From the IMG/VR virus record IMGVR_UViG_2579778554_000004: 41,632 nucleotides of DNA. One strand, given 5' to 3'. Source of the DNA: a virus (Duplodnaviria; Heunggongvirae; Uroviricota; Caudoviricetes). The notes below the pieces were generated by a model. It searched no databases. It worked only from the letters and a program-made list of their open reading frames with translations, and was not told where the DNA came from. Both the position numbers and the translations under genes were made by a program. Of the stretch, positions 5,718-36,607 are shown one piece after another; within the stretch, counting starts at the first letter, position 1, and every line of letters starts with the position of its first letter.

Positions 5718-5732
5718 TTACCTTTCAGGTAA
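5718..5732. promoter_or_regulatory. Operator-like palindrome TTACC-N5-GGTAA (site 1 of 13)
   Basis: attacctttcaggtaat; intergenic, upstream of LexA box and the 5810 gene. Confidence 0.5.
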
Positions 5733-5769
5733 TTTTCAAAACGTGCTGGATAGCAAACAAATTATTTGC

Positions 5770-5789
5770 TACTGTATAAATATACAGTT
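5770..5789. promoter_or_regulatory. LexA (SOS) box
   Basis: TACTGTATAAATATACAGTT: CTGT-N8-ACAG matching the E. coli consensus at 18 of 20 positions; 6-20 nt upstream of the next start codon. Confidence 0.65.
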
Positions 5790-5809
5790 ATTGCATGGAG
5801 AAGATTAAG

Positions 5810-6067
5810 ATGCAGCAGTATCACTATCCACTGGAAGAGGGATTTACCGAAAGGATTCACACGCCGGGAGGCGTCAGGTCACTGGTGGAGGGATCGCACT
5901 TGATGAAATTACTCCGGGATCTCGATAAGGATGGATTTAATGTCGATGGTCCACTTGCCGAACTGACTGCACTGATTAACTACGTCACCAGCTCACAGAT
6001 GTCTATGCGGGATCTGCAAACACATCTCGACTATTGTGCCGAACAATTACGAAAACAAACCAGATAA
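5810..6067 (+). CDS. Small SOS-box-associated protein consisting only of the domain found at the C-termini of the two antirepressor-like proteins; candidate antirepressor
   Basis: GGAG RBS 9 nt upstream of ATG 5810 (alternative ATG 5795); alignable to the C-terminal ~75 aa of the 6385 and 8152 gene products. Confidence 0.6.
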   Translation: MQQYHYPLEEGFTERIHTPGGVRSLVEGSHLMKLLRDLDKDGFNVDGPLAELTALINYVTSSQMSMRDLQTHLDYCAEQLRKQTR

Positions 6068-6070
6068 GGT

Positions 6071-6099
6071 TTGTAATTACCAAGTGGAGTGCTTATATT
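6071..6099 (+). promoter_or_regulatory. Sigma70-like promoter (TTGTAA-17-TATATT) abutting an operator
   Basis: -35 6071-6076, -10 6094-6099, operator palindrome 6099-6113 immediately downstream. Confidence 0.45.
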
Positions 6100-6384
6100 T
6101 ACCTTTGCGGTAAATTTACACCGCACTCCTCTTGTGCCATAGTAATCGGGCACTGGCAAAATCCAGTGCCGGGATTGGTCTCCCGGATTACTAAGTGGCG
6201 CATACCACGCCAGACGTGGTTTTTTTATGCGTATAGCACAGTCATGCCAGAATTATGGTGGGCTGAATGGGGGTCCGAAAGGACGCCGGTACCACTTAGG
6301 CCGGTAAGACCAACTCCGTTCAGTTCACCACCATCTGATTGGTCTCAGCGGTGGTGATGTAATTCGCTAAGTGGAGACGCCATC
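6099..6384 (+). repeat. Left copy of duplicated ~285-nt structured leader (operator, hairpins, intrinsic terminator, pre-RBS hairpin) upstream of the antA-like gene
   Basis: Reverse-complement match to 8848-9131 with compensatory substitutions in stems; begins with TTACCTTTGCGGTAA. Confidence 0.75.
6204..6226 (+). terminator. Intrinsic terminator or attenuator inside the leader
   Basis: ACCACG-ccaga-CGTGGT followed by TTTTTT; alternative pairing GGCG/CGCC upstream could compete. Confidence 0.55.
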
Positions 6385-7041
6385 ATGAACGCTCAACTCA
6401 TCCCCGTATTCAACGGCACTATCGCCAACGAAACCACTCTTCTCGTTAATGCTCGCGATTTACATACTTTTCTTGGGGTAGGTAAACGCTTTGCATCGTG
6501 GATTACAGAACGCATTGCTGAATATGGTTTCGTTGAAAATCAGGACTATATTTTGGTTTCCCCAAATCGGGAAATCAAAGGTCGAGGAGGCGATCGCCGT
6601 AGCAAAGACTATCACCTCACCCTCGATACGGCCAAAGAAACTGCGATGGTCGAGCGCAACGAAAAAGGCCGCCAGATACGCCGATACTTCATTGAATGCG
6701 AGAAACGTTTAAGACAACAAGAAACAAAGGTGGAGAAGGTCTTGTCAGGCTTCATGCCCGCCATTATGGAGGCGATCAAGCTGGAAGACAAAAAAGAATA
6801 CAGTGCCCCACTGAAGCCCGGCTACCGCAGTCTGATTCACTCGCCGTCGGGTGTTCTCGGCCTGACGGAGAACTCACTGCTGATGAATCTGCTGAACCAG
6901 TTACAGGAAGACGGGCACGACGTATCGGGCGCGGCGGCGGAGCTGACCACCATGTTCTGCTACATCGTCGGTGTGAGCAAATGCCTGCGTGATATCCAGA
7001 CCCACGCGGAGTACATCAACGACAAGGCAGGGTTCTTCTGA
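6385..7041 (+). CDS. Antirepressor-like protein, AntA/AntB-type N-terminal domain plus shared C-terminal domain
   Basis: ARDLHTFLGVGKRFASWITERIAEYGFVENQDY pattern; C-terminal ~85 aa near-identical to C-terminus of the 8152-8847 product. Confidence 0.8.
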   Translation: MNAQLIPVFNGTIANETTLLVNARDLHTFLGVGKRFASWITERIAEYGFVENQDYILVSPNREIKGRGGDRRSKDYHLTLDTAKETAMVERNEKGRQIRRYFIECEKRLRQQETKVEKVLSGFMPAIMEAIKLEDKKEYSAPLKPGYRSLIHSPSGVLGLTENSLLMNLLNQLQEDGHDVSGAAAELTTMFCYIVGVSKCLRDIQTHAEYINDKAGFF

Positions 7042-7060
7042 CGGCGGCGGCACAGGGACG
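6789..7060. repeat. Inner inverted repeat, left copy (3' end of antA-like gene)
   Basis: Near-identical by eye to reverse complement of 8132-8394. Confidence 0.8.
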
Positions 7061-7076
7061 TGCAAAACGAAACTAT

Positions 7077-7090
7077 CGTGACATGTCACA
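7077..7090. promoter_or_regulatory. Conserved 14-mer CGTGACATGTCACA (copy 1 of 3)
   Basis: Identical 14-mer also at 27323-27336 and 29541-29554; contains palindrome GTGACATGTCAC. Confidence 0.4.
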
Positions 7091-7114
7091 GGCCGCTTTC
7101 GCGGCCTTGTTTTT
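7091..7114 (+). terminator. Intrinsic terminator after antA-like gene
   Basis: GGCCGC-tttc-GCGGCC followed by TTGTTTTT. Confidence 0.6.
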
Positions 7115-7345
7115 AACGAATGCCACCGCCGCCTGGGCGGGAATCCGCAGAACGCCCACCGCAGCGGGAGCCGTCAGCGGCAGTATCGCTGTCGTGCTGA
7201 CAACGACCGGCAAAGGCCTGAGTTGAAGCTACCAGAGACAACAAAACGAACAGTGCAGCAAATGCTTTTTTCATTGTGAAATTTCCATCTATAAGCCACC
7301 TCAATGTGGCGTCAATGAGTGTAGCACTGACTTTTGTTTCGTCCA

Positions 7346-7368
7346 CAAAAAAGCCCGCGCTGCGGGCT
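7346..7368 (-). terminator. Intrinsic terminator for the 210-aa gene
   Basis: Hairpin GCCCG-cgctg-CGGGC immediately after stop at 7373, followed on minus strand by U-run (A-tract 7346-7351 on plus). Confidence 0.65.
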
Positions 7369-7372
7369 TCTA

Positions 7373-8005
7373 TTAATGCAGTTTATCTTTGCTTATAACC
7401 AGTAGTCTGTGGGTATGCACATCTTTATCACTGCCCCAACAGAAATCAGCCCACTGGCTATAGAAATCATCCCATGATGTCATGAAGCTAAGAGGTCTAT
7501 CTTCTTCAGAGCCATCTGAAACGTATACATTATATCCTGGGGTGTTTATAGCCCAAGAAATCATTCTTTCCCAGAATCTTCTCCCATCGATTGTTTGTTG
7601 CTCATCAGATACAACGATCGCATATTGCTCTAGGAAGAACTGAAAAAAAATCTGAGGCAAACCATGAACAGCACGGTCATGAATAACATTAGGCGTACGC
7701 CATACCATGATCTGCGTACATGTTCTTTTGGCTTCGACGATATCTTCCCGAAAGATTAACTTAACCGCATACACCGTTTCTGGAGTATCGCTGGTAGTAA
7801 TCATTCTGTAATGATCGCCATTACAAGATTTTACAAGGCGATAACCATAAGGTGTTGTGAATCCCGGAAGAACGAAATCAACCACACCTTTCGCTAAGTA
7901 GCTTTCGGTGTGACTAGTGTTCTTCTCAGACATGTTCAGTTTTCTATCGAAATCTGCTTCTGGGATAATGTATGGCATCGCTTTTCTTGTTGTATTTGTT
8001 CTCAT
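7373..8005 (-). CDS. Hypothetical 210-aa cytoplasmic protein, orphan accessory gene (no family recognised)
   Basis: Strong SD GGGAGG before ATG; own operator-bearing upstream region and own terminator; AT-richer than flanks by eye. Confidence 0.75.
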   Translation of the reverse strand: MRTNTTRKAMPYIIPEADFDRKLNMSEKNTSHTESYLAKGVVDFVLPGFTTPYGYRLVKSCNGDHYRMITTSDTPETVYAVKLIFREDIVEAKRTCTQIMVWRTPNVIHDRAVHGLPQIFFQFFLEQYAIVVSDEQQTIDGRRFWERMISWAINTPGYNVYVSDGSEEDRPLSFMTSWDDFYSQWADFCWGSDKDVHTHRLLVISKDKLH

Positions 8006-8064
8006 TTCGTCCTCCCATGTTTGGCTACAGGACGCGTTTTGAAGGGAAGATTAAAAATGCTTTC

Positions 8065-8079
8065 TTACCCTTGAGGTAA
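8065..8079. promoter_or_regulatory. Operator-like palindrome TTACC-N5-GGTAA (site 3)
   Basis: ttacccttgaggtaa, about 60 bp upstream of the 210-aa gene start. Confidence 0.5.
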
Positions 8080-8131
8080 TAGTACGCTATTCACCCCCAG
8101 TCTGCAATCTGTACAGAATTATTTAAAGGCA

Positions 8132-8394
8132 CATCCCTGTGCCGCCGCCCGTCAGAAGAACCCTGCCTTGTCGTTGATGTACTCCGCGTGCGTCTGGATA
8201 TCACGCAGGCATTTGCTCACACCGACGATGTAGCAGAACATGGTGGTCAGTTCCGCCGCCGCGCCCGATACGTCGTGCCCGTCTTCCTGTAACTGGTTCA
8301 GCAGATTCATCAGCAGTGAGTTCTCCGTCAGGCCGAGAACACCCGACGGCGAATGAATCAGGCTGCGGTAGCCGGGCTTCAGCGGGGCACTGTA
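8132..8394. repeat. Inner inverted repeat, right copy (3' end of bro-like gene)
   Basis: Reverse complement matches 6789-7060 with only a few mismatches. Confidence 0.8.
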
Positions 8395-8847
8395 GGTTTT
8401 GTTCTCTATCTTCATCGCCTGCATTACTGCTGACGCCGTGGCGTTGGCTACCTGGTCGGCAACCATCTTTATGCGTTCTTCCTGCGGGAGCGAGTTTTTA
8501 ATGTAACTTCCGGTGCGGCGGATCTGAGGAAGAACCTCACCTGTAACCCATTTACGAAAGCGGTATGGGATAGTGCCTGGTGTCACCGCATCGCGGCAGC
8601 GGAGGATCAGTGTGTAGAGGCCTGACTCGGAGATAATGATCGATTCTTGCTCACCGCCAGGGGTGTCGGTTGAAGCGACGCCCTTCTCATCATCATCAAG
8701 TTTTCGAACAGCATCTCGATGGTTTGCTATGCCTATAGCCCGACAAACATCTGAAGCGATAAACCATGGCTCACCATTAATGACGATTACCCGTATATCG
8801 GCTTGAGATTCGAAAGAAAAAATGGACGTGCTTTTTGTAGCTGTCAT
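8152..8847 (-). CDS. Antirepressor-like protein, Bro-N/P22-Ant-type N-terminal domain plus shared C-terminal domain
   Basis: N-terminus IRVIVINGEPWFIASDVCRAIG typical of Bro-N/Ant; C-terminus identical to antA-like C-terminus. Confidence 0.8.
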   Translation of the reverse strand: MTATKSTSIFSFESQADIRVIVINGEPWFIASDVCRAIGIANHRDAVRKLDDDEKGVASTDTPGGEQESIIISESGLYTLILRCRDAVTPGTIPYRFRKWVTGEVLPQIRRTGSYIKNSLPQEERIKMVADQVANATASAVMQAMKIENKTYSAPLKPGYRSLIHSPSGVLGLTENSLLMNLLNQLQEDGHDVSGAAAELTTMFCYIVGVSKCLRDIQTHAEYINDKAGFF

Positions 8848-9131
8848 AGTGGTTACCTTTTAGTCTGGTTAATCACCACTACCGACGCCAATCGGTTGGT
8901 GGTGAACTGTGCAGGGTTGGCGTAACCGGCTAAAAGGACCCGGCGCACCTTTCGGTGCCCCCACACAGCCCACCATAATACGAATGTGGCCGTGCTATAC
9001 GCATAAAAAAACCGCTTGCGCGGTGAATGCGCCTTTTAGTAATCCGGGACGCCAATCCCGGCACTGGATTTTGCCAGTGCCCGATTACTATGGCACAAGA
9101 GGAGTGCGGTGTAAATTTACCGCAAAGGTAA
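8848..9131 (-). repeat. Right copy of duplicated structured leader, upstream of the bro-like gene
   Basis: Reverse complement of 6099-6384; operator TTACCGCAAAGGTAA at 9117-9131; terminator hairpin ACCGC-ttgc-GCGGT plus A-run 9005-9024. Confidence 0.75.
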
Positions 9132-9278
9132 TGATAGACACAGACAAACATTAAAATCAACCATATTTGGTTAATGTGTGTAAAAGAGCCAGCAGCGAGA
9201 AATTGTGCCGCGACGTAAAATAACGAGCATCTGCTGGCTTACAACCAGCGATGTTTCAAATTTGTCACTACTATCAAC

Positions 9279-9626
9279 GTGCCATTACACGGCGCAGAGC
9301 TTTATGTCGTCAATCACAACGGCGAACCGTACACCCCAATGAAACCTATCGTTGAAGGCATGGGTATGGTTTGGGCTGCTCAATTTGTTAAATTAAAACA
9401 GAGATTTGTCAAAGGTATTTCGGAAATCGAAATACCTTCTGCTGGCGGTAAACAGTTAATGATATGCCTTGCCTTTCGTAAGTTTGCGGCTTGGCTTTCA
9501 AGCATTCAGCCAAACAAAGTCTGCCCTGTAATCCGCGAAAGTATTGAAACATCAACCGTATCGATATCGACACGGTTGATTATGACGGTAACTTATTTCC
9601 GTGTGTACTATTTCTCCCGCCACTAA
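9279..9626 (+). CDS. Hypothetical protein, possibly a truncated antirepressor-like N-terminal domain
   Basis: 115-aa ORF; C-terminal 20 aa look like out-of-frame sequence; family assignment uncertain. Confidence 0.4.
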   Translation: MPLHGAELYVVNHNGEPYTPMKPIVEGMGMVWAAQFVKLKQRFVKGISEIEIPSAGGKQLMICLAFRKFAAWLSSIQPNKVCPVIRESIETSTVSISTRLIMTVTYFRVYYFSRH

Positions 9627-9923
9627 CTAATTATATTTGTCTTTAAAAATTTCATGGAATGATTGAGAGTAAGACTTGCCATACTTCAAATAACATTCTT
9701 CATCCAACTTTCTTAATGAACTTCGAACCTGTTCGTGGCATACAGCAAAAAAAACAAGTCCGCCGCCTATTAATACCCCTATTGATATTGGGTTCGCAAC
9801 ATCCCATAAAAAATCGGCTAACAGAGCAAATACCCCACCGCCGCCAATAAATGCCCCTATAGCTCGGTTCGTTTTAGCTTGCTCATAGCGTCTCTCTAAC
9901 TCACTAAACTCTTTAATATCCAT
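9627..9923 (-). CDS. Small two-TM membrane protein; candidate superinfection-exclusion or toxin-like factor
   Basis: GAGGTG RBS; two Gly-rich hydrophobic helices (GAFIGGGGVFALL, IGVLIGGGLVFFAV); AT-rich. Confidence 0.55.
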   Translation of the reverse strand: MDIKEFSELERRYEQAKTNRAIGAFIGGGGVFALLADFLWDVANPISIGVLIGGGLVFFAVCHEQVRSSLRKLDEECYLKYGKSYSQSFHEIFKDKYN

Positions 9924-10000
9924 ATAAGCACCTCTATAAAATTACTTCATCACCGGATCCACCTGGTTTATTAGTGGCGCAATCCAGAACAGATGTTTTA

Positions 10001-18017: not shown

Positions 18018-20488
18018 CAGAATCCCCCAACAGTAAGGCGAGGAATAACGGCAAGAACAGACAGCGGCAACGGATCAAGCTGACGGATTTTTACACGTCC
18101 GTTTTTGCCCCAGTTACTGTCCAGTTTCACTTCTACTTTTCCGGTAGCATCATCAACAGGATCATCGTAGAACTCGAATTCACGCTGTGGATATTCGTAC
18201 CATTTACCGCCGGGCGTAGTCGCCCAGATGCCGCGACTGGCATTCACAACCAGAGTAACGGACGGGATCACCTGTTTTTTGTCCAGCAGCGTTTCCTGTC
18301 CGTTAATGTTGATATCCAGTGTTTCGAATTCAGCAGTTATTGGCAGGCCGATGTGCACTACAGCCCCCGGAGATTCCAGCGTGACGGCACCTCCGGAAAC
18401 CACTTTCTGTGGTTCCACGTTCGCATCAGAGAGGATGTTTACGGTCTGGCCTTCAAGATGAGACAAGCCGCCAAATGTCCGGCGCGCCATCTGCCAGTTC
18501 GTGGTGGCCACATTCCTGAGGGATGGCGGGACGTTCCTGTTAGCACGAACCACTACAGCGGTATTGCTGGTTACAGAAATAATGTCGCAACGTAATTCTT
18601 TTGACACTTCATCGCCAGTATCAGGATCAGTTCCGGTATAAGGGAACTGTAGTTGCGCGCCGACATCACTACTGGTGAAGTACGCACCACCAGAAACACT
18701 GATTGTATATTCCGCATGGTAATCCCATTCACCAGAACCACCAGTGATGGTCATCGTTCTGTCAGACGTATTTCTTCCATCATAGCTAAGGCCAGAATCA
18801 ACAAAGAAAGCATCTTCATCGCTGGTAAATAAACGGCTGGACAGTCGCTCGATGTATCTCACTGTTTGCCCGTTAACGGTTCGGTTAACGACGAAATACA
18901 CCGCATCTTCATTGCCTTCGCTGATACTGCATGTGCTTTCATATTTTCCGGTACTGGATTGTGGTGCCCATGCAAAAACCTGCTGATCACGCAAATAGGT
19001 CATCACCAGTAATTTACCGTCATCACGAATGCAGAAGGCACTGGAGTAAGGGACAATCGAGAAGCACCAGTCAACAATGCTGTGCTTCTGAAAAAGATGA
19101 TTGGCAAGGATGGTCAGGTCGTTCCCCTGATAGCCGTCAACATCGAATGAGTAGGCCAGATCACGGACAACGCTGCCTTTCTCCTGGACGAACAGAGCAA
19201 TATTCGCCACGGCAATTGGCGGGACGTTGCTTGAGCCATTTGATCCCTGAGAGCTGAATGCAAATGATGATGGGGTTAACACTTTGTTCTGGTCGCCGGT
19301 GATGACGTACTCACCTCCGGAAGTCAGCGCCACCAGAGAACCAACATCAATCAGGTGGCGGATCTCATTAACCTGACGTCCGGCATAGGTGTAGATAATT
19401 CTGTCGTCATCCTGCGTAGGATTGCTTTTGCCAAAATCCTTATAATCCCCGGTACGGCTGGCCCAGATAGTCTGAGGAAACGCAGTCGATGCGGCGAAGT
19501 AAAGACGTTGTTGATAATAAACAACAGTGCCAGGATAACCATTAACACTGTTCCAGGCATATTTAGCCCATTTATAGCTGGCATTATCCTCGCCAACGAC
19601 CTGCGAAGGGATATAGGAAATCACCTCAGCAGTTGCAGTAGTGCCATTTGCAGCAGTGATACGGGCAATGCCAAAACCACTGTGCAGATACTCCCACTCA
19701 ATGCCAGTATCATCATCACCGGATCCGCCCCAGCCATCCCATGATGTGCCTTCTGTATGCGAAGGGCGCAAAGTACCTGTTTTGCCTGCTGTAACGGCGC
19801 GATAGTAGTTACTGTCTGCACGGCGAATATCGCCAATCGACGTACTCTTACTGGTTTCCCATACCGGCACAGAATCCACTGCAGGCTGTTCCAGATAGAA
19901 CAATTTGCCTACCTGCTCCGCGCCAAAAATAGAGGCGCTTGCCGTTAACGTAATTGTCCCGGTGCTGGCGCTGGCATAAACCGTCACTGACTCGTCAATA
20001 TTGATATCTTCAAATGGCCCGTTCTTCGTTACCACATCAACCAGTTGCCAGTTGTCATGCGCATAGCGGCGCAACTCTTTCGGCGGGTATGCCGGATGAA
20101 CCAGCGTAAGCACGTCTGCGCTTTGCGTGAATTTAATTCGGAACAGATCGGCTTCAGTATATGGCGTGGAAATTTCATAAATAACATTGCTGCTGTTCAG
20201 CACCAACGCACCATCTTTGATAACGCGCATGTACTGGTGTCCGAACTCCAGAGCATAGGTCTGAACCGTCGAGAACTGGAACGGGATCAGGCGGCATTTC
20301 CGATTTGGGTATTTGGCGGCACCGACAAAACGCGTACCAGGTCGATTCTCAACGCCGCCATACTGCCGCACGATAAAGTTATCGCACTTGCGCAATGCCA
20401 CCTGGTACTTCGCCATGTCGATACGACCGTACAACGACGGTCCAATCTCACCACCGGCAAAGCTGGGCTGTATCCAACTGATAGCCAT
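18017..20488 (-). CDS. Tail tubular protein B-like (nozzle), 823 aa
   Basis: Size (T7 gp12 is ~794 aa) and position after tube A-like gene. Confidence 0.75.
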   Translation of the reverse strand: MAISWIQPSFAGGEIGPSLYGRIDMAKYQVALRKCDNFIVRQYGGVENRPGTRFVGAAKYPNRKCRLIPFQFSTVQTYALEFGHQYMRVIKDGALVLNSSNVIYEISTPYTEADLFRIKFTQSADVLTLVHPAYPPKELRRYAHDNWQLVDVVTKNGPFEDINIDESVTVYASASTGTITLTASASIFGAEQVGKLFYLEQPAVDSVPVWETSKSTSIGDIRRADSNYYRAVTAGKTGTLRPSHTEGTSWDGWGGSGDDDTGIEWEYLHSGFGIARITAANGTTATAEVISYIPSQVVGEDNASYKWAKYAWNSVNGYPGTVVYYQQRLYFAASTAFPQTIWASRTGDYKDFGKSNPTQDDDRIIYTYAGRQVNEIRHLIDVGSLVALTSGGEYVITGDQNKVLTPSSFAFSSQGSNGSSNVPPIAVANIALFVQEKGSVVRDLAYSFDVDGYQGNDLTILANHLFQKHSIVDWCFSIVPYSSAFCIRDDGKLLVMTYLRDQQVFAWAPQSSTGKYESTCSISEGNEDAVYFVVNRTVNGQTVRYIERLSSRLFTSDEDAFFVDSGLSYDGRNTSDRTMTITGGSGEWDYHAEYTISVSGGAYFTSSDVGAQLQFPYTGTDPDTGDEVSKELRCDIISVTSNTAVVVRANRNVPPSLRNVATTNWQMARRTFGGLSHLEGQTVNILSDANVEPQKVVSGGAVTLESPGAVVHIGLPITAEFETLDININGQETLLDKKQVIPSVTLVVNASRGIWATTPGGKWYEYPQREFEFYDDPVDDATGKVEVKLDSNWGKNGRVKIRQLDPLPLSVLAVIPRLTVGGF

Positions 20489-21812: not shown

Positions 21813-22250
21813 TTAACCAGTTACTTTTGAGCGGATCGGATACGGCGTATTGGCATCAACATCAAGATTGATACCCGCAGTGAATTTGCCAGCCGTTAGT
21901 GGGCCAGTTGCGACGGAGTAGTTAACACGCAGATATCGCTGAACACCGGCTGGCACCTTTGCAGAAACAACTCGCTTACCTGCTGTCAGGGTGGCCTTTG
22001 CCAGTGCGCCACTATCATAAATAGTGGACCATGAGCTGTTATCCTCACTCGTCTGCAACTGGATGTTTACAGTTGCATCACCGCTTGCTGCGGCGGCTGT
22101 GTTAACCAGCGCCCAAAACTCAAGCGGGTAACCCACGCCGATATCACGACGTTTTCCGTCAATTGGACCGAGATCGATTACGTCAGTAGAAGCCGCGGTA
22201 TCAGTTACCGCCTGTGCTTCGGAGAACATCAACAGTTTGTCGGTGATCAT
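21813..22250 (-). CDS. Putative capsid decoration or minor head protein
   Basis: Immediately downstream of major capsid gene; Ala/Thr-rich beta-type composition. Confidence 0.55.
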   Translation of the reverse strand: MITDKLLMFSEAQAVTDTAASTDVIDLGPIDGKRRDIGVGYPLEFWALVNTAAAASGDATVNIQLQTSEDNSSWSTIYDSGALAKATLTAGKRVVSAKVPAGVQRYLRVNYSVATGPLTAGKFTAGINLDVDANTPYPIRSKVTG

Positions 22251-22301
22251 CTTCTTTCTCCATTAGTGGGTCTGTTACGACCCACAGGTTAATAACAGGC
22301 G

Positions 22302-23294
22302 TTACACCACGCGGGCTTCTGTTTCCAGAAGCGCATCAGTTTCACGGATTGGTACACCACGGAATGAAGTCCACCACTCGCCTTCTGTCTCTTTTACGCT
22401 GATCGCCAGAGATGTTTTCTCCAGAGATTGCAGATCAAGAGCCTGGCCTACAGTGCGGTTCATGTAGAACACCGGGCGACCCATGCCACGATTTGGAATG
22501 CGATGCAGTGCTTTAACCATCAACTTCGCAATATTTGCGGCAGAGGAAGGTTCTGAAAGATTGCTGACATCGATGTTTGCAATGCGAACAACATAACGCC
22601 AGTCACGCAGAGCAAGTCCGTTATCCCATTTGTAATGGGTGCGATAGCCTTCGTACTTGCCGCCATTAGCATCTTCCAGTGTCACCTGGCCTTTATCTTC
22701 CATCTGGATGCCAGCCTTCTGCCCTTTCGGGAAGATGCCATGCACGGTGTTTTCGCCCCACACCACTAACCAGATTGAGGTGTTATCTGTACCCGTGCCA
22801 CCAGCATCAATGATGTTCTGAGCATTACCCGCAGACAGGCTGGAATAGCGGGAGGACAGTCCCATAAACTGCTGAGGGTTAACGCTGGAATCACCATAAA
22901 ACAGCGTCTGCGCCATCTGCTGATTCATCGCTTCAATAAATGCGCGGTCTTCAGACAGGCGGAATTCGGCGGTATTGCCGTTCAGATCAGCCAGTGACTT
23001 ATCGACTTCCGCATAGGTTTCCAGCATGCCAACGGAATCGGTTACCTGTACTGTGGTTGATTTGCTTGGCTGTACGCCATAGTTCAGCAAACGCCAGGTA
23101 GCTGAAGGTAAACCAGAACGAATGGTGGTTCGGTGTCCGGTAGGAAGGTTCCCTTCGACAAAAGGCATATCCTGAAGGATCGGGTTAGTTTGACCGAGAA
23201 GCTCGATAATCTTATCGACTTTCCCGTTTGGATCGACGCGCTTACCCCAGTCAGCCAGCGTTAGCGCAGTTAAGCCTTTAACAGCCATTGTCAT
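22302..23294 (-). CDS. Major capsid protein, 330 aa
   Basis: Position after scaffold gene; size matches epsilon15-type coat protein. Confidence 0.85.
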   Translation of the reverse strand: MTMAVKGLTALTLADWGKRVDPNGKVDKIIELLGQTNPILQDMPFVEGNLPTGHRTTIRSGLPSATWRLLNYGVQPSKSTTVQVTDSVGMLETYAEVDKSLADLNGNTAEFRLSEDRAFIEAMNQQMAQTLFYGDSSVNPQQFMGLSSRYSSLSAGNAQNIIDAGGTGTDNTSIWLVVWGENTVHGIFPKGQKAGIQMEDKGQVTLEDANGGKYEGYRTHYKWDNGLALRDWRYVVRIANIDVSNLSEPSSAANIAKLMVKALHRIPNRGMGRPVFYMNRTVGQALDLQSLEKTSLAISVKETEGEWWTSFRGVPIRETDALLETEARVV

Positions 23295-26284: not shown

Positions 26285-26299
26285 TTACCTTTCAGGTAA
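26285..26299. promoter_or_regulatory. Operator-like palindrome TTACC-N5-GGTAA (site 5)
   Basis: ttacctttcaggtaa at the start of the tRNA/moron insertion. Confidence 0.5.
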
Positions 26300-26621: not shown

Positions 26622-26698
26622 GTGGCATTAGCTCAGTTGGACAGAGCAACCGCCTTCTAAGCGGTTGGTCGCAGGTTCGAATCCTGCATGCCACGCCA
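26622..26698 (+). tRNA. tRNA-Arg, anticodon UCU (reads AGA), CCA encoded
   Basis: Cloverleaf by hand: acceptor GTGGCAT/ATGCCAC, D-arm GCTC..GAGC, anticodon stem ACCGC/GCGGT with loop CTTCTAA, T-arm GCAGG-TTCGAAT-CCTGC, discriminator G plus CCA. Confidence 0.9.
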
Positions 26699-26741
26699 GA
26701 ATCACGCCTAAGGACCGTGATGCCAGAAGTTCCAGGGGCTT

Positions 26742-26784
26742 GGCGGTGATGGTTTCCCTTGAAGGACTATCACCGCCCTTTTTA
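26742..26784 (+). terminator. Hairpin plus T-run downstream of tRNA
   Basis: GGCGGTGAT...ATCACCGCC then CTTTTT. Confidence 0.45.
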
Positions 26785-26861
26785 CAGCAGGACGCCATTG
26801 CGATGACTTCATGCTGTAAACCAGTACAGCCACGGAAGGCATAACTCATTGCTTCCAGTTC

Positions 26862-26886
26862 GCCCGGTTCGCCGGGCATTTTTTTA
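26862..26886 (+). terminator. Intrinsic terminator-like hairpin immediately upstream of the RBS of the 140-aa gene
   Basis: GCCCGG-ttcg-CCGGGC followed by ATTTTTTT, then AAGGTGAGATC-ATG. Confidence 0.5.
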
Positions 26887-28838: not shown

Positions 28839-29509
28839 TGATTACCATCCTGACGTTCTTTGAGTCGCTTCCTGGCTGCTGCTATGCGATCAGCAATTGT
28901 CACATTCACATTAACATCCAGACGTTCTTTGAATGCGTTGACATCAACATGCTTACCAATCAGCTCAAGGTTCTTCACCTTGTCAGGCCATTTAATTTTT
29001 TTGAGGATTGTCTCTATTGAATCCTCGTTCATGTTCATGATGGTCGATGACAGATCAAAGCCACTAAGCGTAGTGCGCCAGATTTTCGGCCACTCACGGA
29101 TTGGTTTAAGGCTCCCATCGTCGTTGAGGATGTCGATCACGTCCATCTGGTCGATCTCCACCAGGCGCATGAGAACGTAATCAGCACTGACACGCATTCG
29201 TTTGTTGCGCTCCTCCATCAACTCGGCAATCCGTTTCTGAATGCGTTCATCGCGCATCATGACACTGGCTTTAACTGCCGCTGTATTTGGGGAGAATCCT
29301 GCGTTAATCGCAGCCTGAGTCTGGTTTTCAGGCGTTTTGATGTATGACTGGCAATAAGCCTCCTGCATTGCTGTGAGCGGCTTAAATTGCGTTGATTTGC
29401 GTTTATAGGTTTTAGGTTCAGCAGGCATCATAACTACCGTGGTAATTGTTACCGTTGTGGTAATAATACCATGCAAAATAAAGCCGCCATAGTTGGCGGC
29501 AGTATTCAA
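28835..29509 (-). CDS. Terminase small subunit (true start may be the internal Met pair near 29431)
   Basis: Immediately upstream of and overlapping large subunit; basic helical N-terminal region. Confidence 0.7.
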   Translation of the reverse strand: MNTAANYGGFILHGIITTTVTITTVVMMPAEPKTYKRKSTQFKPLTAMQEAYCQSYIKTPENQTQAAINAGFSPNTAAVKASVMMRDERIQKRIAELMEERNKRMRVSADYVLMRLVEIDQMDVIDILNDDGSLKPIREWPKIWRTTLSGFDLSSTIMNMNEDSIETILKKIKWPDKVKNLELIGKHVDVNAFKERLDVNVNVTIADRIAAARKRLKERQDGNQ

Positions 29510-29540: not shown

Positions 29541-29554
29541 CGTGACATGTCACA
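29541..29554. promoter_or_regulatory. Conserved 14-mer CGTGACATGTCACA (copy 3 of 3), directly upstream of the terminase small-subunit gene
   Basis: Exact 14-mer in the 40-bp gap between the 29550 gene stop and the terminase small-subunit start. Confidence 0.4.
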
Positions 29555-29891
29555 CTATTAATTTCGTTTCATGCCAGCCTTTAGTCACCCAGCATTGTGA
29601 GTCACCATTACACGGACATGAATTAACTGGAACTCTCTCGCCGCACTTACCGCAACGTGTTCTGCTGATCGATTTTATACGCCCGTGCACGCGTGCATCA
29701 TCCTGGCGGATCAGTAACGCTATATACTCACCAAATTCGTAAGGCGCACGCCCGGGGCGACGCGTGGCACAGTTACGCTCCAGAATTTCAATTTCCTGAG
29801 CATCAAGCACAATCTCCAGCTTACGCACACCAGATGCAGCTTGTCTGGCTCTCTGAGCGGCTTTGCGCTCTGCTGCTGATTTAGCCATCAA
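29550..29891 (-). CDS. Hypothetical protein with Cys-rich C-terminal zinc-binding-like motif
   Basis: CGKCGE...CPCNGDSQC cluster; basic N-terminus. Confidence 0.55.
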   Translation of the reverse strand: MMAKSAAERKAAQRARQAASGVRKLEIVLDAQEIEILERNCATRRPGRAPYEFGEYIALLIRQDDARVHGRIKSISRTRCGKCGERVPVNSCPCNGDSQCWVTKGWHETKLIV

Positions 29892-31850: not shown

Positions 31851-32213
31851 TCATCTGCCAGTCTGGTTTCTCTTTTCGCCACAGAGAGCATCCAGTTCAA
31901 TCGACAATTTTTCCAACTGCTCTTGATGCTTCTTGTATTCCTGATATGCGTGCCAAGACTGACCTTTGCGCACACTATCAGTGATATCAGTAATCTGTTC
32001 TGGTGTTAGCGTGGTCAGTGGCTGTGATGGGAAAATAAGCACTTTCCCGGAATCCCAATCAAAACCAGCGTGAATTGACTGAACCTCAACTGAAGGTGTT
32101 GAACCAATGCTGCCAGGCGAATGAACAACGATTGTTACATCCATATCGCGACGATGGCTGTGGTTGTTGGACAAAATACGATTCACCAACTCAGAAAATT
32201 TGGAAAATTTCAT
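31851..32213 (-). CDS. Hypothetical protein
   Basis: 120-aa ORF, coupled with downstream genes. Confidence 0.55.
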   Translation of the reverse strand: MKFSKFSELVNRILSNNHSHRRDMDVTIVVHSPGSIGSTPSVEVQSIHAGFDWDSGKVLIFPSQPLTTLTPEQITDITDSVRKGQSWHAYQEYKKHQEQLEKLSIELDALCGEKRNQTGR

Positions 32214-32533
32214 GCTGATTCCCCTTTCTCTGCTCTCTCCTGTCGGAACATCACTATCATCAGGTCGCCTTTTGTCGCTATCCTGGCTGTTGTACCTGGT
32301 TCAATGCGGCTAAGCTCAAATGCGTCATAGAACGCTTCTAATGCCTTCTGGCGTAGTTCCTGTTTGCGCCGTTTTTTCCACTGTTTTAGGAAAATGGAAC
32401 CCAGCCATCGCCATGTACGGGACATGATGTAAAGCCAACCGAGAAGTGCCAGACCGGTATTTAGGAGCGTATCGATCGTTATTGTCGTGTCGATATTCAC
32501 TGGCTGCTTCCTTTGCGAATCTGTTCCGCCCAT
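32210..32533 (-). CDS. Hypothetical protein with a hydrophobic segment
   Basis: 107-aa ORF; start may be internal. Confidence 0.45.
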   Translation of the reverse strand: MGGTDSQRKQPVNIDTTITIDTLLNTGLALLGWLYIMSRTWRWLGSIFLKQWKKRRKQELRQKALEAFYDAFELSRIEPGTTARIATKGDLMIVMFRQERAEKGESA

Positions 32534-33060
32534 TCTTCAAGGGATTTCTCCGCATATTCACCAGACAGGCCATCAATCGGATGCGCTTCATTAGCCAACT
32601 CTTCTTTCGCTGACAAAATCATGCGTGTAACGTCGAAAACTTCACGCAAAGACTTATTGATAAATCCGTGATTGAACGCAGCAGCAAGACGGCTGGCGGT
32701 ATAGTTAATCCCCTCGTTGCGTGCCTCCGCACGTATTTCAGCCAGGAAAGCATCGGTGGCTGACATATTTCCTGTTGCCTTCATGGCCTTCAAAATAACC
32801 AGAACGTCATCTTGCCCAACCAACTCGGAGATAATCTCAGTGTTGTCGCCAACAACCTCACAGAATGCCTGAACAGCTTTACGAGCAAGTGCATTCTCCG
32901 CCGCCAGCGCATTAGCACGCACCAGTTGCACTTCCAGTTGCGTTGCCAAATCGCTGATCAGCTTTGCCACACTGCGCATATCAACGGCACCACATTCTGC
33001 TTTCAGTTCCGAAGCCATCTCATGCCCGGCGGCAACTAACCCTTTGATATTACTTTCCAT
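32497..33060 (-). CDS. Hypothetical protein
   Basis: 187-aa ORF in nin-like block. Confidence 0.55.
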   Translation of the reverse strand: MESNIKGLVAAGHEMASELKAECGAVDMRSVAKLISDLATQLEVQLVRANALAAENALARKAVQAFCEVVGDNTEIISELVGQDDVLVILKAMKATGNMSATDAFLAEIRAEARNEGINYTASRLAAAFNHGFINKSLREVFDVTRMILSAKEELANEAHPIDGLSGEYAEKSLEEWAEQIRKGSSQ

Positions 33061-33121
33061 CTTTACCCTCGCTTATCCACATAACTTATTGATTACATTG
33101 ATAACTAAAAAGATCGTCGAT

Positions 33122-33466
33122 TCAGAACTCTTCGATTTTCCATCCGCCACCTGCTTTCTTTGGCTTAACAGTTACCCCGATGATTCGGAACGGATATTGA
33201 TCTGCGGCGACTTTGGTTTTCACCCTGGCGTCGTCGGTCCAGAAACCTTTCACTTCGTGCAGTTCCATCTCTCCGGTGGCGAGCATCACAGCGAAATCTG
33301 GCGTATAGAACGTGTTATCAGCTAACCGCAGCTTGATACCCTCGAATCGATACCAGGCGATTTCCCCTGCACGTTTACGCAGCTCAAGGTGCTGGCAATA
33401 CACAGATTCTGTTTTGTTCATCTGGCCTGTTTTGAGTCGACCAAGAGCCTGTATCTGTTTTCTCAT
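33122..33466 (-). CDS. Hypothetical protein (DUF1064-like, common in lambdoid nin regions)
   Basis: 114-aa ORF downstream of P-like gene; family from memory. Confidence 0.55.
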   Translation of the reverse strand: MRKQIQALGRLKTGQMNKTESVYCQHLELRKRAGEIAWYRFEGIKLRLADNTFYTPDFAVMLATGEMELHEVKGFWTDDARVKTKVAADQYPFRIIGVTVKPKKAGGGWKIEEF

Positions 33467-33469
33467 GAT

Positions 33470-33484
33470 TTACCCCTGAGGTAA
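33470..33484. promoter_or_regulatory. Operator-like palindrome TTACC-N5-GGTAA (site 6)
   Basis: ttacccctgaggtaa. Confidence 0.5.
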
Positions 33485-33551
33485 TTAAAAACCACATAAG
33501 ACACGAAATCAATAGAGTTTAGAATATTTTATTACCCAACAGGTAATTATC

Positions 33552-33566
33552 AAGACGTAAAAAAAT
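33552..33566. promoter_or_regulatory. Operator-like palindrome TTACC-N5-GGTAA (site 7)
   Basis: ttacccaacaggtaa. Confidence 0.5.
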
Positions 33567-33583
33567 GCGCTATCGCGCTGGTA

Positions 33584-34360
33584 TTACTTGATAAATCCTG
33601 CCGCCTTTCCCCGCCTGTATTCCTCCATCAGCCACTGCGCCGGTGTTATTCCCCCCAGGGTGGCGGCGTTAGGCATACACCCGAAACTTCGCCCTGGTGG
33701 ATGGTAAACGTCTCTCCCTGTGTCCGGAGGTGTACTCATGGGTTCTGGCTTTGCCTGTATGCTGATCACCGGATCGGGTATCTGCTGTCCGGAAGCCACC
33801 TTTTTCGCCCAATCATCGAGCAGCCTGCGCGCGTGTTTCTCAACCTCAATCTCGCTAAGCTGGCGCTGATACATTGCACGGCGGGTATCACATACGACCC
33901 AGTACATAACCGGATGTCGCCACGGGAATCTTTCGGGACCACCAGGATATAAACTTTTTTCCTTGCTGTACCGGTGAAACTCCGCCATCACATCGTCAAT
34001 GGTGACGCCAAGAACCATCTTGCTGTCTTTGCACCACTTGATGAATTGCCCAGGCGACGGCCAGAACGGAGATTCACTGGCGCGGGCGTGGCGCATACCA
34101 GCGTTAACCTGTTCCATTGTTGTGATCCCATTCTCCAGAAACGCAAGCATCCATTGCTTACGGAATTCATTAAGTTTGTTCTGCTCCCTTATGGTCGAAA
34201 CGCTTGCAGGAAATGCAGCCTGTAACTGGACAAATAGTTCATTGAAAATTCTAGCAACCTGCTCCTTTTTGCCATTGCTGTCACGCCGCTCTTCATGCAC
34301 AGCAACACCATGCTCACGTAAGCGATCGTACTCATTGAGAAGTTCTGGAGTTGATTTCAT
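33584..34360 (-). CDS. Replication protein P-like (helicase loader)
   Basis: FPAS...RKQWMLAFLENGITTMEQVNAGMR block closely resembles lambda P. Confidence 0.8.
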   Translation of the reverse strand: MKSTPELLNEYDRLREHGVAVHEERRDSNGKKEQVARIFNELFVQLQAAFPASVSTIREQNKLNEFRKQWMLAFLENGITTMEQVNAGMRHARASESPFWPSPGQFIKWCKDSKMVLGVTIDDVMAEFHRYSKEKSLYPGGPERFPWRHPVMYWVVCDTRRAMYQRQLSEIEVEKHARRLLDDWAKKVASGQQIPDPVISIQAKPEPMSTPPDTGRDVYHPPGRSFGCMPNAATLGGITPAQWLMEEYRRGKAAGFIK

Positions 34361-35180
34361 CCCACACCCCTTCTATCCAGTCAGTGTTATTCCAGTCAAG
34401 CTCATCGCTTTTCCCGGCGTTTTTTGATTTTCCCCTGATATGATTTACGTGCCTGGCGAATTTTTGTTCCCACTGAACCTGCGTGAACACTTTGCCCTCA
34501 GCCATCCAGTAATCCCGGAATGCAGCAAGTTCAGCAGGTGTAAATTCCGGTTCCGGCAGGGCCGTTCCCCACAGCGCAGCACGCCGTCGAAAATCCGGCG
34601 ACGGATGCCAGCCATCGGTCATCGGAAATTTCCCGATGGGTTCACTCAGGCCATCCAGAAATTCAGGTTCAGCCACCTGCAACGGCATACCGTTCGCTTC
34701 ACTGGTCGGAGCACCCTCGCGCACGTGCGCTATGTGTGGGGTTTTATATATATCTTCCTCTTCCTCTTCCTCTGGTAACTCCTTTTGTAACGCTGTTGGC
34801 GTTACTTTTTGCGTTACTCGTTTTCGATGCTCTGCCACTCTTCTATTCGTAAGTGCACGTTTTTTCGATGATTCTCCATTATGTCGCTCAAAGTTTGGAA
34901 GAATTAGTTTGCCGTCATGATAAGCAAGCCATCCGACGCTAATGAGGGCGTCAGCAAATCCTGTAATAAAAGCGAGTCTATCAAGTACTCCTTTTGTAAC
35001 GCTGCCAGCGTTACCGTCTATTGTTTGCTGGTCAGCCCATGCCCATATACGAACCAGCTTTCCAAGAACAGCATCTGGATCAATACCCAGAATTTCTGCT
35101 ATCTGAAAAATTTCAGGTTTATCAGGAGTGATAACTTCAACCTTAATCCAGCTGCTTGCCATAGGTTTCCCCTCTTGCAC
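34332..35180 (-). CDS. Replication initiator (O-like position) with DnaT-like C-terminal region
   Basis: Position upstream of P-like gene; acidic linker EEEEEED. Confidence 0.6.
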   Translation of the reverse strand: MQEGKPMASSWIKVEVITPDKPEIFQIAEILGIDPDAVLGKLVRIWAWADQQTIDGNAGSVTKGVLDRLAFITGFADALISVGWLAYHDGKLILPNFERHNGESSKKRALTNRRVAEHRKRVTQKVTPTALQKELPEEEEEEDIYKTPHIAHVREGAPTSEANGMPLQVAEPEFLDGLSEPIGKFPMTDGWHPSPDFRRRAALWGTALPEPEFTPAELAAFRDYWMAEGKVFTQVQWEQKFARHVNHIRGKSKNAGKSDELDWNNTDWIEGVWDEINSRTSQ

Positions 35181-35355
35181 TCTTTAGTGCACAAGCAAAT
35201 TCATTACGATGGCGGTTGGCGCTATTCATTGCACATTCAACACATGTTCCGTTCAGAACATACCTTTCAGAGAGATGGCCGTGACGGCACCGCTTTCCTG
35301 TGAAATAGCGATTTAACCCGGCTTTTGCGGCCTCCATTCTGGTTACTATCTTCAA
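35143..35355 (-). CDS. Small zinc-ribbon protein (cII position); putative regulator
   Basis: C-x-H...C-x2-C cluster; position after Cro-like gene. Confidence 0.5.
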   Translation of the reverse strand: MKIVTRMEAAKAGLNRYFTGKRCRHGHLSERYVLNGTCVECAMNSANRHRNEFACALKSARGETYGKQLD

Positions 35356-35433
35356 TTTTTCCGCCCCTTTTTGTTATTGATATTGGCTATTTTGCACAAT
35401 TGGAAAATTTGATCAACCAGATTTGGTTTTTTA

Positions 35434-35448
35434 TTACCTTTGAGGTAC
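35434..35448. promoter_or_regulatory. Operator-like palindrome, imperfect (TTACC-N5-GGTAC) (site 8)
   Basis: ttacctttgaggtac. Confidence 0.4.
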
Positions 35449-35503
35449 GAATAGATATGAAAAGACCGCCGGGTGGCGGTCTACAGAGGGTTGTAGCTGG
35501 ATA

Positions 35504-35734
35504 TCATGAGTAGAAGAAGTATGCCAGTTCTGCTTTTGAGCGCAGCCATTGTCTTGTTTTACAGGCTTTAAAAAGCCCATTCATCAATACTTTACCTGGC
35601 ATTTTGCGCTTACCTGTTAAGTGAGTCTGGATATAGTGACTCGTCGTTCCGGCTTCCTGTGCGAAGGCTTCACGCTCATCCGGAGTAAGTGCAAGCCAGT
35701 GCTTTTTGAAATCGAAATGTCCGTTATCGCTCAT
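35504..35734 (-). CDS. Cro-like small DNA-binding regulator
   Basis: 76 aa; divergent from repressor gene across an operator cluster; first gene of the replication-side operon. Confidence 0.6.
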   Translation of the reverse strand: MSDNGHFDFKKHWLALTPDEREAFAQEAGTTSHYIQTHLTGKRKMPGKVLMNGLFKACKTRQWLRSKAELAYFFYS

Positions 35735-35770
35735 AGCTATTGCCTGATATTTATTTCAGATAATAAATAT

Positions 35771-35833
35771 TCACCCATAAGGTAACAAAAATCAAGGATA
35801 GTTACCCATGAGGTGCATTTACCTGTTGGGTAA
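35771..35833. promoter_or_regulatory. Immunity-region operator cluster: three tandem palindromes (sites 9-11) between Cro-like and repressor genes
   Basis: tCACCcataaGGTAA 35771-35785, TTACCcatgaGGTgc 35802-35816, TTACCtgttgGGTAA 35819-35833. Confidence 0.6.
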
Positions 35834-35888
35834 TATTGCTTTAAATTGAATCATCTACTGATTCATATATGAGGCGATTTTCCAGAAA

Positions 35889-36473
35889 ATGAAAAGTATC
35901 CAGGACGTCCGCAGGCAAAATCTCAACGACTTGATCGACCGTGAATTCAATGGTGTTCAGACGCGGATGGCAGAAAAACTTGGAACTCAGGCAAATCTGG
36001 TAAACCGCTGGGCTCTTGGCAAGAAGGTTATCGGCGACCAGGTTGCGCGAAAAATTGAAGCTGCCGCCAATAAACCACGTAACTGGCTTGATATCGATCG
36101 CTCGCTTTCTCAGGAAGGTTTTCAGCCTGTCGGCCCAAGCGACATTGGTCAGCTGGCGGCTCACAACCTGGAACGCTGGATGAGCGAAAGCCGCGACCTT
36201 TCAACTCAGGGAAAACTTCACCGCGCATCCGGCGTCGCCCAGGTGACAATCAGCCGCCTGTTAAACAATGAGGTCAGTGTTTCCATTTCCACCCTGGAGA
36301 ATGTTGCATCAGCATTCGGGCGTCACGGCTATGAATTACTGATTCACCCGCACGACCCTGCGACCATCAACTATGACCGCTCGCGCTACGCATTGTTACC
36401 CGAAACCGAGAAAGCAAAGATCGAAAGTTACATTGAATTTGTCATCAACCAGAACGAAAAAAACAAACAATAA
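35889..36473 (+). CDS. Prophage repressor (CI-like), tandem HTH domains, no autocleavage domain
   Basis: Two XRE-type HTH regions; no Ser-Lys peptidase motif seen; divergent from Cro-like gene. Confidence 0.75.
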   Translation: MKSIQDVRRQNLNDLIDREFNGVQTRMAEKLGTQANLVNRWALGKKVIGDQVARKIEAAANKPRNWLDIDRSLSQEGFQPVGPSDIGQLAAHNLERWMSESRDLSTQGKLHRASGVAQVTISRLLNNEVSVSISTLENVASAFGRHGYELLIHPHDPATINYDRSRYALLPETEKAKIESYIEFVINQNEKNKQ

Positions 36474-36493
36474 AATCATATTTTTCAGTAAGT

Positions 36494-36517
36494 AAGCCGC
36501 CTTCTGGCGGCTTTTTT
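36494..36517 (+). terminator. Intrinsic terminator after repressor gene
   Basis: GCCGCC-ttct-GGCGGC followed by TTTTTT. Confidence 0.75.
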
Positions 36518-36530
36518 ATTGCCTATACTA

Positions 36531-36607
36531 TTACCTAATGGGTAATTTTTTTAACTCATATCTATTGACATCAAACCAAATACGCATAATTATTACCTCA
36601 ACGGTAA
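36531..36607 (+). promoter_or_regulatory. Early promoter region for the recombination operon: TTGACA -35 (36565-36570) flanked by two operator palindromes
   Basis: Palindromes 36531-36545 and 36593-36607; AT-rich -10 candidates 36585-36593; GAGGT RBS follows. Confidence 0.55.

Follow-up and report, generated by a model that had tools for sequence, protein, structure and literature searches.

A palindrome dispersed through a Uetakevirus prophage as the probable operator of its SPC32H-type repressor

The DNA analysed here, 41,632 nt from IMG/VR virus record IMGVR_UViG_2579778554_000004 (the window), carries the palindrome TTACC-N5-GGTAA at one intergenic position after another, which raises the question of what protein reads these sites and which genes they would control. 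A first-pass annotation made from the sequence had counted thirteen copies, all between genes, and had proposed that they are operators of the prophage repressor, dispersed in the manner of phage P1 C1. Judged by its sequence, the window is an integrated prophage of the genus Uetakevirus (epsilon15/phiV10 group), with an immunity region 97-99% identical to those of Escherichia phages vB_EcoP_ZX5 (ZX5), TL-2011b and phiV10. We conclude that the 15-bp palindrome is very probably the operator of the prophage's own repressor, Rep, a predicted tetramer of the SPC32H/epsilon15 type that would not cleave itself and would be inactivated by antirepressors.

An exhaustive scan of the window found eleven exact copies of the palindrome (marked in Table 1; sites are named by their first position), compared to 0.03 expected and a maximum of one in dinucleotide shuffles of the window. 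The motif of the first-pass annotation is real, its figure of thirteen being a mixture of exact and degenerate copies. Allowing one mismatch gave 14 sites against 0.68 expected, the three additions being 35434, 35771 and 5486, and there were 27 two-mismatch matches against 11 expected, most of which are compatible with chance. When all 5-mer palindromes with gaps of 0-11 bp were ranked, TTACC-N5-GGTAA came first in the window with 11 copies, the runner-up having 3, and it also ranked first in ZX5, epsilon15 and SPC32H. Isolated half-sites showed no enrichment or bias comparable to that of the full palindrome. The extended logo is ATTACC-N5-GGTAAT, in which the central base is A or T and the rest of the spacer is free. 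A literature text search for the motif string returned no relevant paper.

All eleven exact copies lie wholly between genes on a curated map of the window that is 8.0% non-coding (P = 8e-13), which bears out the earlier statement that the copies are intergenic. The same is true in the deposited annotations of ZX5 (10 of 10), epsilon15 (11 of 11) and SPC32H (10 of 10), and across these four independently annotated genomes the P values for intergenic restriction fall between 1e-11 and 1e-13. The functional set is likely to comprise 15 sites, namely the eleven exact copies and four degenerate ones at conserved positions, and these roughly 15 sites are spread over about 31 kb, so that the finding really does span an entire phage genome. 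No degenerate partner was detected within 110 bp of the operators that stand singly. The sole intragenic one-mismatch match, 5486 inside the tailspike open reading frame (ORF), is probably a chance occurrence, given that 0.68 one-mismatch sites are expected by chance.

Motif positions were compared in six genomes from phages of four host genera: the window, ZX5, epsilon15, SPC32H, Tyrion (Enterobacter) and BUCT711 (Klebsiella). The RefSeq record of Salmonella phage epsilon15, NC_004775.2 (GenBank AY150271), annotates seven features as "protein_bind: repressor / lysogeny", each of them ATTACC-N5-GGTAAT. They lie ahead of terS and of gp3, between gp19 (the epsilon15 ant) and the tail-fibre gene, around the recET promoter and past the replication genes, which are the same places as in the window. 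Our scan found five further epsilon15 sites that are absent from the record (33341, 33358, 33388, 24704 and 35969), three of them in the rep-cro region. Both the motif and its layout are thus already annotated in epsilon15, and the operator proposal has a precedent within the phage genus; the epsilon15 system was reportedly described by Kropinski et al. in 2007 (Virology 369:234). The motif also occupies orthologous positions in SPC32H, Tyrion, BUCT711 and ZX5, with fewer than one copy expected in each, and the ten exact copies of SPC32H are in the same places as those of the window. When the cro-rep and rep-recET intergenic regions of five genomes were aligned, the columns without variation proved to be the half-sites, the TTGACA -35 hexamer and the ATTATTACC junction, while operator spacers and flanks vary. 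At least 80 IMG/VR viral contigs encode a Rep that is 100% identical to that of the window; these loci are uninformative about operator specificity because the Reps among the matches listed are all 100% identical.

The protein that would bind these sites can be recognised by homology. Rep matched SPC32H Rep over its full length (PDB 5D50 chain A, E = 4e-42, residues 1-190 against 2-197, phmmer search of the PDB), and its Pfam matches were to HTH_3 and other helix-turn-helix families only. Peptidase_S24 was not found in Rep by Pfam, in a search that detects this domain in the repressors of Pseudomonas phage PseuP_224 and Moraxella phage Mcat9. Rep is predicted to bind DNA through its N-terminal domain, with an HTH_3-like domain in the middle and a C-terminal domain for tetramerisation and antirepressor binding. 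The SPC32H protein has N-terminal DNA-binding, middle dimerisation and C-terminal tetramerisation domains (PMC9986798), and it binds palindromic DNA as a tetramer that is disassembled by the tetrameric antirepressor Ant (PMC9638917; PMC9986798). When the ZX5 repressor, which is identical to Rep of the window, was overexpressed, free phage disappeared and the transcripts of holin and endolysin fell by more than 99.9% (PMC9782041).

Two observations connect the palindrome to the N-terminal domain of Rep. The segment NLVNRW in this domain, presumably the recognition helix, is invariant across five Reps that are only 42-78% identical, which would explain why the half-site is alike throughout the genus. 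Outside the genus, the cI protein of PseuP_224 (OP795451) shares only the N-terminal domain with Rep (39% identity) and ends in a LexA-like Peptidase_S24 domain, which makes it a presumed dimer open to RecA-dependent cleavage rather than a tetramer under the control of an Ant protein. Four TTACC-N4-GGTAA sites flank the PseuP_224 cI gene on both sides (2422-2474 and 3297-3336), compared to 0.04 expected; they share the half-site of the window palindrome, with a spacer of 4 bp rather than 5 bp. The half-site thus appears to follow the N-terminal domain, and the spacer to differ with the oligomerisation module. Mcat9, a distant relative in the N-terminal domain, carries degenerate versions of the motif.

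The sites also stand in a fixed relation to predicted promoters. At 6099, 9117, 26285, 29449, 33470 and 36593, a -10-like hexamer ends on the T with which TTACC begins, and a weaker form of the same overlap is found at 5718 and 8065. The best individual promoters are those of recET, the two antirepressor cassettes, DUF1064 and terS. This shared T places the operator at about -7 to +8 of a sigma-70 promoter, where bound Rep would occlude RNA polymerase. Upstream of both the putative recET promoter and the putative DUF1064 promoter stands a second operator, at a centre-to-centre distance of 62 bp from the first and 19 nt before the -35 hexamer, and 62-bp pairs recur in ZX5, epsilon15, SPC32H, Tyrion and BUCT711, where the DUF1064 pair has orthologues. 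Spacings within the rep-cro cluster are 31 bp and 17 bp, the partner of the terS operator lies at a conserved 18 bp, and the other sites are true singles. The 62-bp pairs and the rep-cro cluster would fit a tetramer with two DNA-binding pairs. Three operators directly follow intrinsic terminators, past rep, past cro and ahead of terS.

Seen as a map, these positions suggest that nearly every transcription unit of the prophage starts with at least one operator. Operators head cro and the replication genes, the DUF1064/nin-like and gp3/portal regions, the terS late, tailspike-lysis and recET-methylase operons, both large antirepressor cassettes and a pair of cargo genes. Much of this had been described in the first-pass annotation. 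Its sites ahead of the LexA-box gene, at both antirepressor leaders and ahead of the orphan 210-aa gene are exact copies (5718, 6099, 9117 and 8065), as are both sites flanking the TTGACA recombination promoter (36531 and 36593). The trio that it placed between the Cro-like and repressor genes is present, with only 35819 exact, and between the P-like and DUF1064 genes there are two sites where it had seen one. Its site at the tRNA insertion, 26285, is an exact copy that is conserved throughout the genus and unconnected with the tRNA. It had allowed that more sites might exist, and the one that its text did not name, 29449 with its two-mismatch partner 29431, is the most consequential of all, standing ahead of the packaging/late operon.

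Table 1. Predicted operators and associated features of the window. "Exact" denotes agreement with TTACC-N5-GGTAA; promoter elements are putative.
Feature	Position	Strand	Remarks
Glycine-zipper lipoprotein gene	1-516		Host flank
DUF5384 protein gene	532-1071		Host flank
Operator	5718-5732		Exact; divergent tailspike/ant intergenic region; abuts weak -10 towards tailspike-lysis operon
LexA box	5770-5789	+	TACTGTATAAATATACAGTT; overlaps ant promoter, immediately upstream of ant; perfect match, predicted
Small antirepressor Ant, SPC32H type	5795-6067	+	88% identical to SPC32H Ant, E = 7e-57
Operator	6099-6113		Exact; abuts -10 of TTGTAA-17-TATATT (+); start of antirepressor cassette A
isrK small RNA with terminator	6150-6226	+	Cassette A leader; Rfam 67.7 bits
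C4 antisense RNA	6251-6335	+	Cassette A leader; Rfam 61.2 bits
AntA-type antirepressor	6385-7041	+	Pfam AntA N-terminal domain, E = 3.6e-27; Ant-like C-terminal module
Cargo gene (77 aa)	7113-7346	-	phrog_3117, function unknown
Cargo gene (210 aa)	7373-8005	-	phrog_1349, function unknown
Operator	8065-8079		Exact; ahead of 210-aa and 77-aa cargo genes
Bro-N antirepressor	8152-8847	-	Pfam Bro-N, E = 2.3e-21; Ant-like C-terminal module; 100% identical to ZX5 ORF4
C4 antisense RNA	8980-8895	-	Cassette B leader; Rfam 77.7 bits
isrK small RNA	9080-9005	-	Cassette B leader; Rfam 77.9 bits
Operator	9117-9131		Exact; abuts -10 of TTGATT-18-TATCAT (-); start of antirepressor cassette B
Operator	26285-26299		Exact; between gp3/portal operon and tRNA-Arg; abuts -10 of TAGACA-18-AATTAT (+)
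tRNA-Arg(TCT)	26622-26698	+	Long terL/gp3 intergenic region
Weak operator partner	29431-29445		2 mismatches; 18 bp from 29449; abuts terS start codon
Operator	29449-29463		Exact; abuts extended -10 TGgTATTAT (-); directly upstream of terS, packaging/late operon
Terminator	29500-29483		Before terS operator
Proximal DUF1064 operator	33470-33484		Exact; abuts -10 of TTGATT-17-TTTAAT (-); 4 nt upstream of DUF1064 start codon
Distal DUF1064 operator	33532-33546		Exact; between P-like gene and DUF1064 gene
Operator	35434-35448		GGTAC variant, 1 mismatch; just past cro terminator, ahead of replication genes
cro terminator	35482-35463
Cro-like small regulator	35504-35734	-	Divergent from rep; phrog_35 "transcriptional repressor", E = 5.6e-13; by position, epsilon15 gp39 homologue
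Operator	35771-35785		TCACCCATAAGGTAA, 1 mismatch; overlaps cro promoter TTGTTA-17-TATTAT (-, 35788-35760)
Middle rep-cro operator	35802-35816		TTACCCATGAGGTGC, 2 mismatches
rep-proximal operator	35819-35833		Exact; 17 bp from middle operator; invariant in 5 genomes
Rep, prophage repressor (194 aa)	35889-36473	+	100% identical to phiV10 and ZX5 Rep
Distal recET operator	36531-36545		Exact; 17 nt past rep terminator, 19 nt upstream of -35
recET-operon promoter	36565-36593	+	TTGACA-17-AATTAT; TTGACA invariant in 5 genomes
Proximal recET operator	36593-36607		Exact; first T is last T of -10; 62 bp centre to centre from 36531

Individual sites have counterparts in the relatives. Orthologues of 5718, 26285 and 29449 are annotated in epsilon15 (at 19895-19911, 2931-2947 and 12-27, respectively, the second as a repressor site), and 5718 itself sits 19 nt upstream of the putative ant -35 hexamer. 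The 18-bp partner at terS also occurs in epsilon15 (30), ZX5 (19643) and Tyrion (85), and orthologues of 35434 are found in ZX5 (14207) and Tyrion (35365). In every genome of the cro-rep alignment, a single T-to-C change (TCACC) weakens one half-site of the operator that overlaps the cro promoter; it affects the left half-site in Tyrion and the window, and the right one in epsilon15, SPC32H and BUCT711. This pattern looks like selection for a deliberately weak site. The column orthologous to the middle operator, 35802, is exact in epsilon15, SPC32H and BUCT711. The cargo genes behind 8065 and the other genes of unknown function had no NCBIfam or PADLOC match; the ZX5 site at 978 precedes cargo genes that differ from those of the window.

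Several points weigh against reading these sites as Rep operators. The epsilon15 annotation is possibly only a prediction. A changed half-site was not found in any member of the genus, so that covariation of repressor and operator specificity is missing. Acceptable -35 and -10 hexamers occur in the fixed register at 10 of the 11 window sites, compared to about 15% in neighbouring registers, and at 27 of 40 sites across four genomes, figures that are inflated because orthologous sites are not independent and because two of the six matches to the -10 hexamer come from the operator's own A/T flank. Single sites of the distal type (5718 relative to ant, and 35434) overlap no core promoter, the target promoter of 26285 is ambiguous, and the rep promoter itself received no convincing consensus assignment. 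Finally, the Cro-like protein probably shares the sites, and sequence alone cannot assign one protein to each.

This last point leads to an explanation that we consider unlikely, in which the sites are read mainly by another regulator, either the Cro-like protein or the phrog_536 regulator encoded upstream of terS (29550-29891), and serve as a lytic-phase element, possibly an activator site. Both proteins are predicted transcription regulators, some single sites lie upstream of the -35 hexamer, where activators bind, and Cro and repressor use common operators in lambdoid phages. However, the half-site follows the N-terminal domain of Rep into an unrelated Pseudomonas phage, with four sites at cI, and wherever the motif is unchanged, so is the presumed recognition-helix segment of Rep. 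In addition, the epsilon15 curators attribute the sites to the repressor, and most sites overlap the -10/+1 region, where binding would repress.

The palindrome might instead act as a 5' stem-loop in RNA, influencing stability, RNase III processing or attenuation, and not as a DNA site. An operator that abuts a -10 hexamer would be transcribed at about +1 to +8, and its 19-nt RNA versions have folding energies of -3.3 to -5.4 kcal/mol. The distal copies 36531 and 33532 and the rep-cro cluster, however, are located within promoters or upstream of them, so that no transcript would start with these copies. Moreover, half-site sequences are strictly conserved, the natural variants TCACC, GGTAC and GGTGC break the pairing, some 60 sites from six genomes contain no compensatory pair changes, and the loop is free apart from the central A/T, which is a signature of protein recognition of DNA. 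Because compensatory changes are absent and many sites would not be transcribed, we reject the RNA hairpin as very improbable. There is next to no chance that the palindrome is a dispersed selfish or structural repeat, or that it arose by chance in the AT-rich DNA between genes and regulates nothing. Such DNA does contain many promoter-like strings, with matches overall at about shuffle level, but shuffles yield 0.03 sites and never more than one, the positions are orthologous in phages of four host genera despite diverged surroundings, and the -10 register recurs together with the 62-bp and 17-18-bp spacings.

The reading that best fits these observations is that Rep binds the palindrome as its operator. 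The earlier operator proposal is thereby supported by the epsilon15 annotation, conservation within the genus, the invariant Rep segment, the PseuP_224 half-sites and the overlap with promoters. How Rep would be released is suggested by the genes at the left of the prophage. The small ant gene encodes a close relative of SPC32H Ant, and its promoter is overlapped by a predicted LexA box; the LexA consensus is CTGT-N8-ACAG. Two larger antirepressors follow in cassettes A and B, each behind an operator, an isrK RNA and a C4-family RNA, with RNA matches at the Rfam gathering level. Small Ant is homologous over its whole length to the C-terminal ~80 residues of each large protein: in this part the AntA-type protein shares 38% identity with SPC32H Ant (E = 3e-16) and the Bro-N-type protein 44% with Ant of the window (E = 1e-17), and the last ~70 residues of the two large proteins are identical to each other. 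Therefore, the prophage has three putative paralogous Rep-binding modules. Overexpression of ZX5 ORF4, the counterpart of the Bro-N protein, decreased lysogeny (PMC9782041).

One of these modules would be gated by LexA and the other two by Rep itself together with small RNAs, an arrangement that suggests a positive-feedback latch. During the SOS response, inactivation of LexA would allow small Ant to be made, and Ant would then take Rep tetramers apart, so that all operators open. Among the operators freed would be those of the two larger antirepressors behind their isrK/C4 RNA gates, and their expression would reinforce the switch. A more ambitious version of this scheme is offered tentatively, as something we find possible rather than probable. 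In it, one non-cleavable repressor directly gates every unit, including the late and lysis genes, with no need for a separate late-gene cascade; the Rep-gated antirepressor paralogues form an irreversible latch; and each 62-bp pair is bound by one tetramer that clamps the promoter.

The operator-to-isrK offset is 36 nt, and the same module with the same offset is present in ZX5 and Tyrion. Cassettes A and B form an inverted duplication, with leaders (6089-6358 and 8872-9141) that are 76-87% complementary and antirepressor gene 3' ends (6786-7044 and 8149-8407) that are 96% complementary, and this duplication brackets the 77-aa and 210-aa cargo genes. It is a possible substrate for inversion or cassette exchange. 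ORFs that lie over the RNA leaders, such as 6034-6357 and 8909-9154, are probably spurious; ZX5 has an "ash family protein" coding sequence annotated on top of its C4 copy. Beyond cassette B, a 115-aa ORF (9279-9626, plus strand) matches only the N-terminal third of Ant-type antirepressors of about 317 aa (phrog_524, profile 13-102) and resembles what would remain of a fourth antirepressor gene after truncation.

By every feature tested, the system appears to belong to the epsilon15/SPC32H Rep-Ant family. Epsilon15 has the same motif (ATTACC-N5-GGTAAT) and the same layout and belongs to the same genus, but its gp38 is only 42% identical to Rep of the window, and it lacks the extra sites ahead of the two isrK/C4 antirepressor cassettes and the cargo pair. 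SPC32H shares full-length Rep homology, Ant (88%), a LexA box over the ant promoter and the ten exact operators; it differs in diverged C-terminal parts of Rep, and the window adds the two larger antirepressors with C-termini paralogous to Ant. Antirepression by SPC32H Rep and Ant was reportedly described by Kim and Ryu in 2013 (J Virol 87:11775) and by Kim et al. in 2016 (PNAS 113:E2480), with structures 5D50 and 5D4Z in the PDB.

The likeness to P1 proposed in the first-pass annotation is a fair functional analogy and not homology, because P1 operators are asymmetric and Rep is of the SPC32H type. P1 C1 acts at 22 operators dispersed over the genome, which control replication, accessory and antirepressor genes, and each is an asymmetric 17-mer, ATTGCTCTAATAAATTT (PMC8546580). 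The window likewise would have one repressor acting at many scattered operators, but these are symmetric 15-17-mers. In P1 immI (c4 RNA-icd-ant), an antirepressor lies behind a C4-family RNA, and the C4 RNAs of the window lie downstream of operators 6099 and 9117. The immI region is also preceded by a C1 operator (Op51). With both large antirepressors behind an operator, isrK and C4, the analogy is stronger than the first-pass annotation knew. Rep shows no sign of kinship with P1 C1, judged only by its database matches, which are to SPC32H Rep and to HTH_3, YdaS-like and RstR-like models. No equivalents of P1 Coi or Lxc/Bof were identified in the prophage, and P1 is a plasmid, whereas the window prophage integrates.

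The contrast that had been drawn with the two-cluster design of lambda also stands; in the lambda-type switch the operators are confined to OR and OL, and late genes are under indirect control by way of an antiterminator. Lambda and P22 share with the window three tandem graded operators in a divergent rep-cro region, overlapping both promoters, and a second operator set at the recombination (PL-like) operon. In the window, by contrast, operators are also found at the terS late operon, gp3, the tailspike-lysis unit, the antirepressor cassettes and the cargo genes, with spacings of 17, 31 and 62 bp, and Rep lacks an S24 domain and is predicted not to be RecA-cleavable. In the Gifsy-1 isrK-orf45-anrP locus, isrK has a terminator of its own, and read-through past it transcribes a short element and then an antirepressor-like gene (Hershko-Shalev et al. 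2016, PMC4825925). This isrK-antirepressor order matches the window cassettes, but each window module adds a C4-family RNA and a Rep operator at the fixed 36-nt offset.

This type of immunity is very common in Escherichia coli prophages and has relatives in Salmonella, Klebsiella and Enterobacter; the group includes phiV10, which is used for detection of O157:H7. An operator map of this kind tells which genes would be silent in lysogens and which would be switched on jointly at induction. The accessory antirepressor and cargo genes would accordingly be wired into the immunity circuit and not expressed as lysogenic-conversion genes. The prophage represents no new class of regulation, but it offers a compact, testable model for the use of paired sites by a tetrameric repressor, and three aspects deserve attention, namely the geometry of the proposed 62-bp clamp, the direct control that the repressor would exert on the late operon, and the antirepressor paralogues that Rep would gate.

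The attachment-site core ATTGAGTGGGAATGATT given for phiV10, epsilon15 and ZX5 (PMC9782041) is located at 1162-1178, and positions 1-1161 are therefore host flank; the remainder is prophage. The window stops exactly at the integrase start codon, so that a conserved one-mismatch site upstream of int, kept in relatives (e.g., ZX5 8026 and epsilon15 26882), would fall just beyond it. Within the long terL/gp3 intergenic region, an 83-aa ORF on the minus strand (26628-26879) overlaps tRNA-Arg and is doubtful; its ZX5 equivalent (22176-22427) is annotated as a hypothetical protein. The corresponding region of Tyrion has an Rfam match to int-alpA RNA (2605-2669, minus strand, 44 bits), to which the window has no equivalent match. 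A tRNA is also present in the terL/gp3 region of SPC32H, ZX5 and BUCT711 and is not peculiar to the window prophage.

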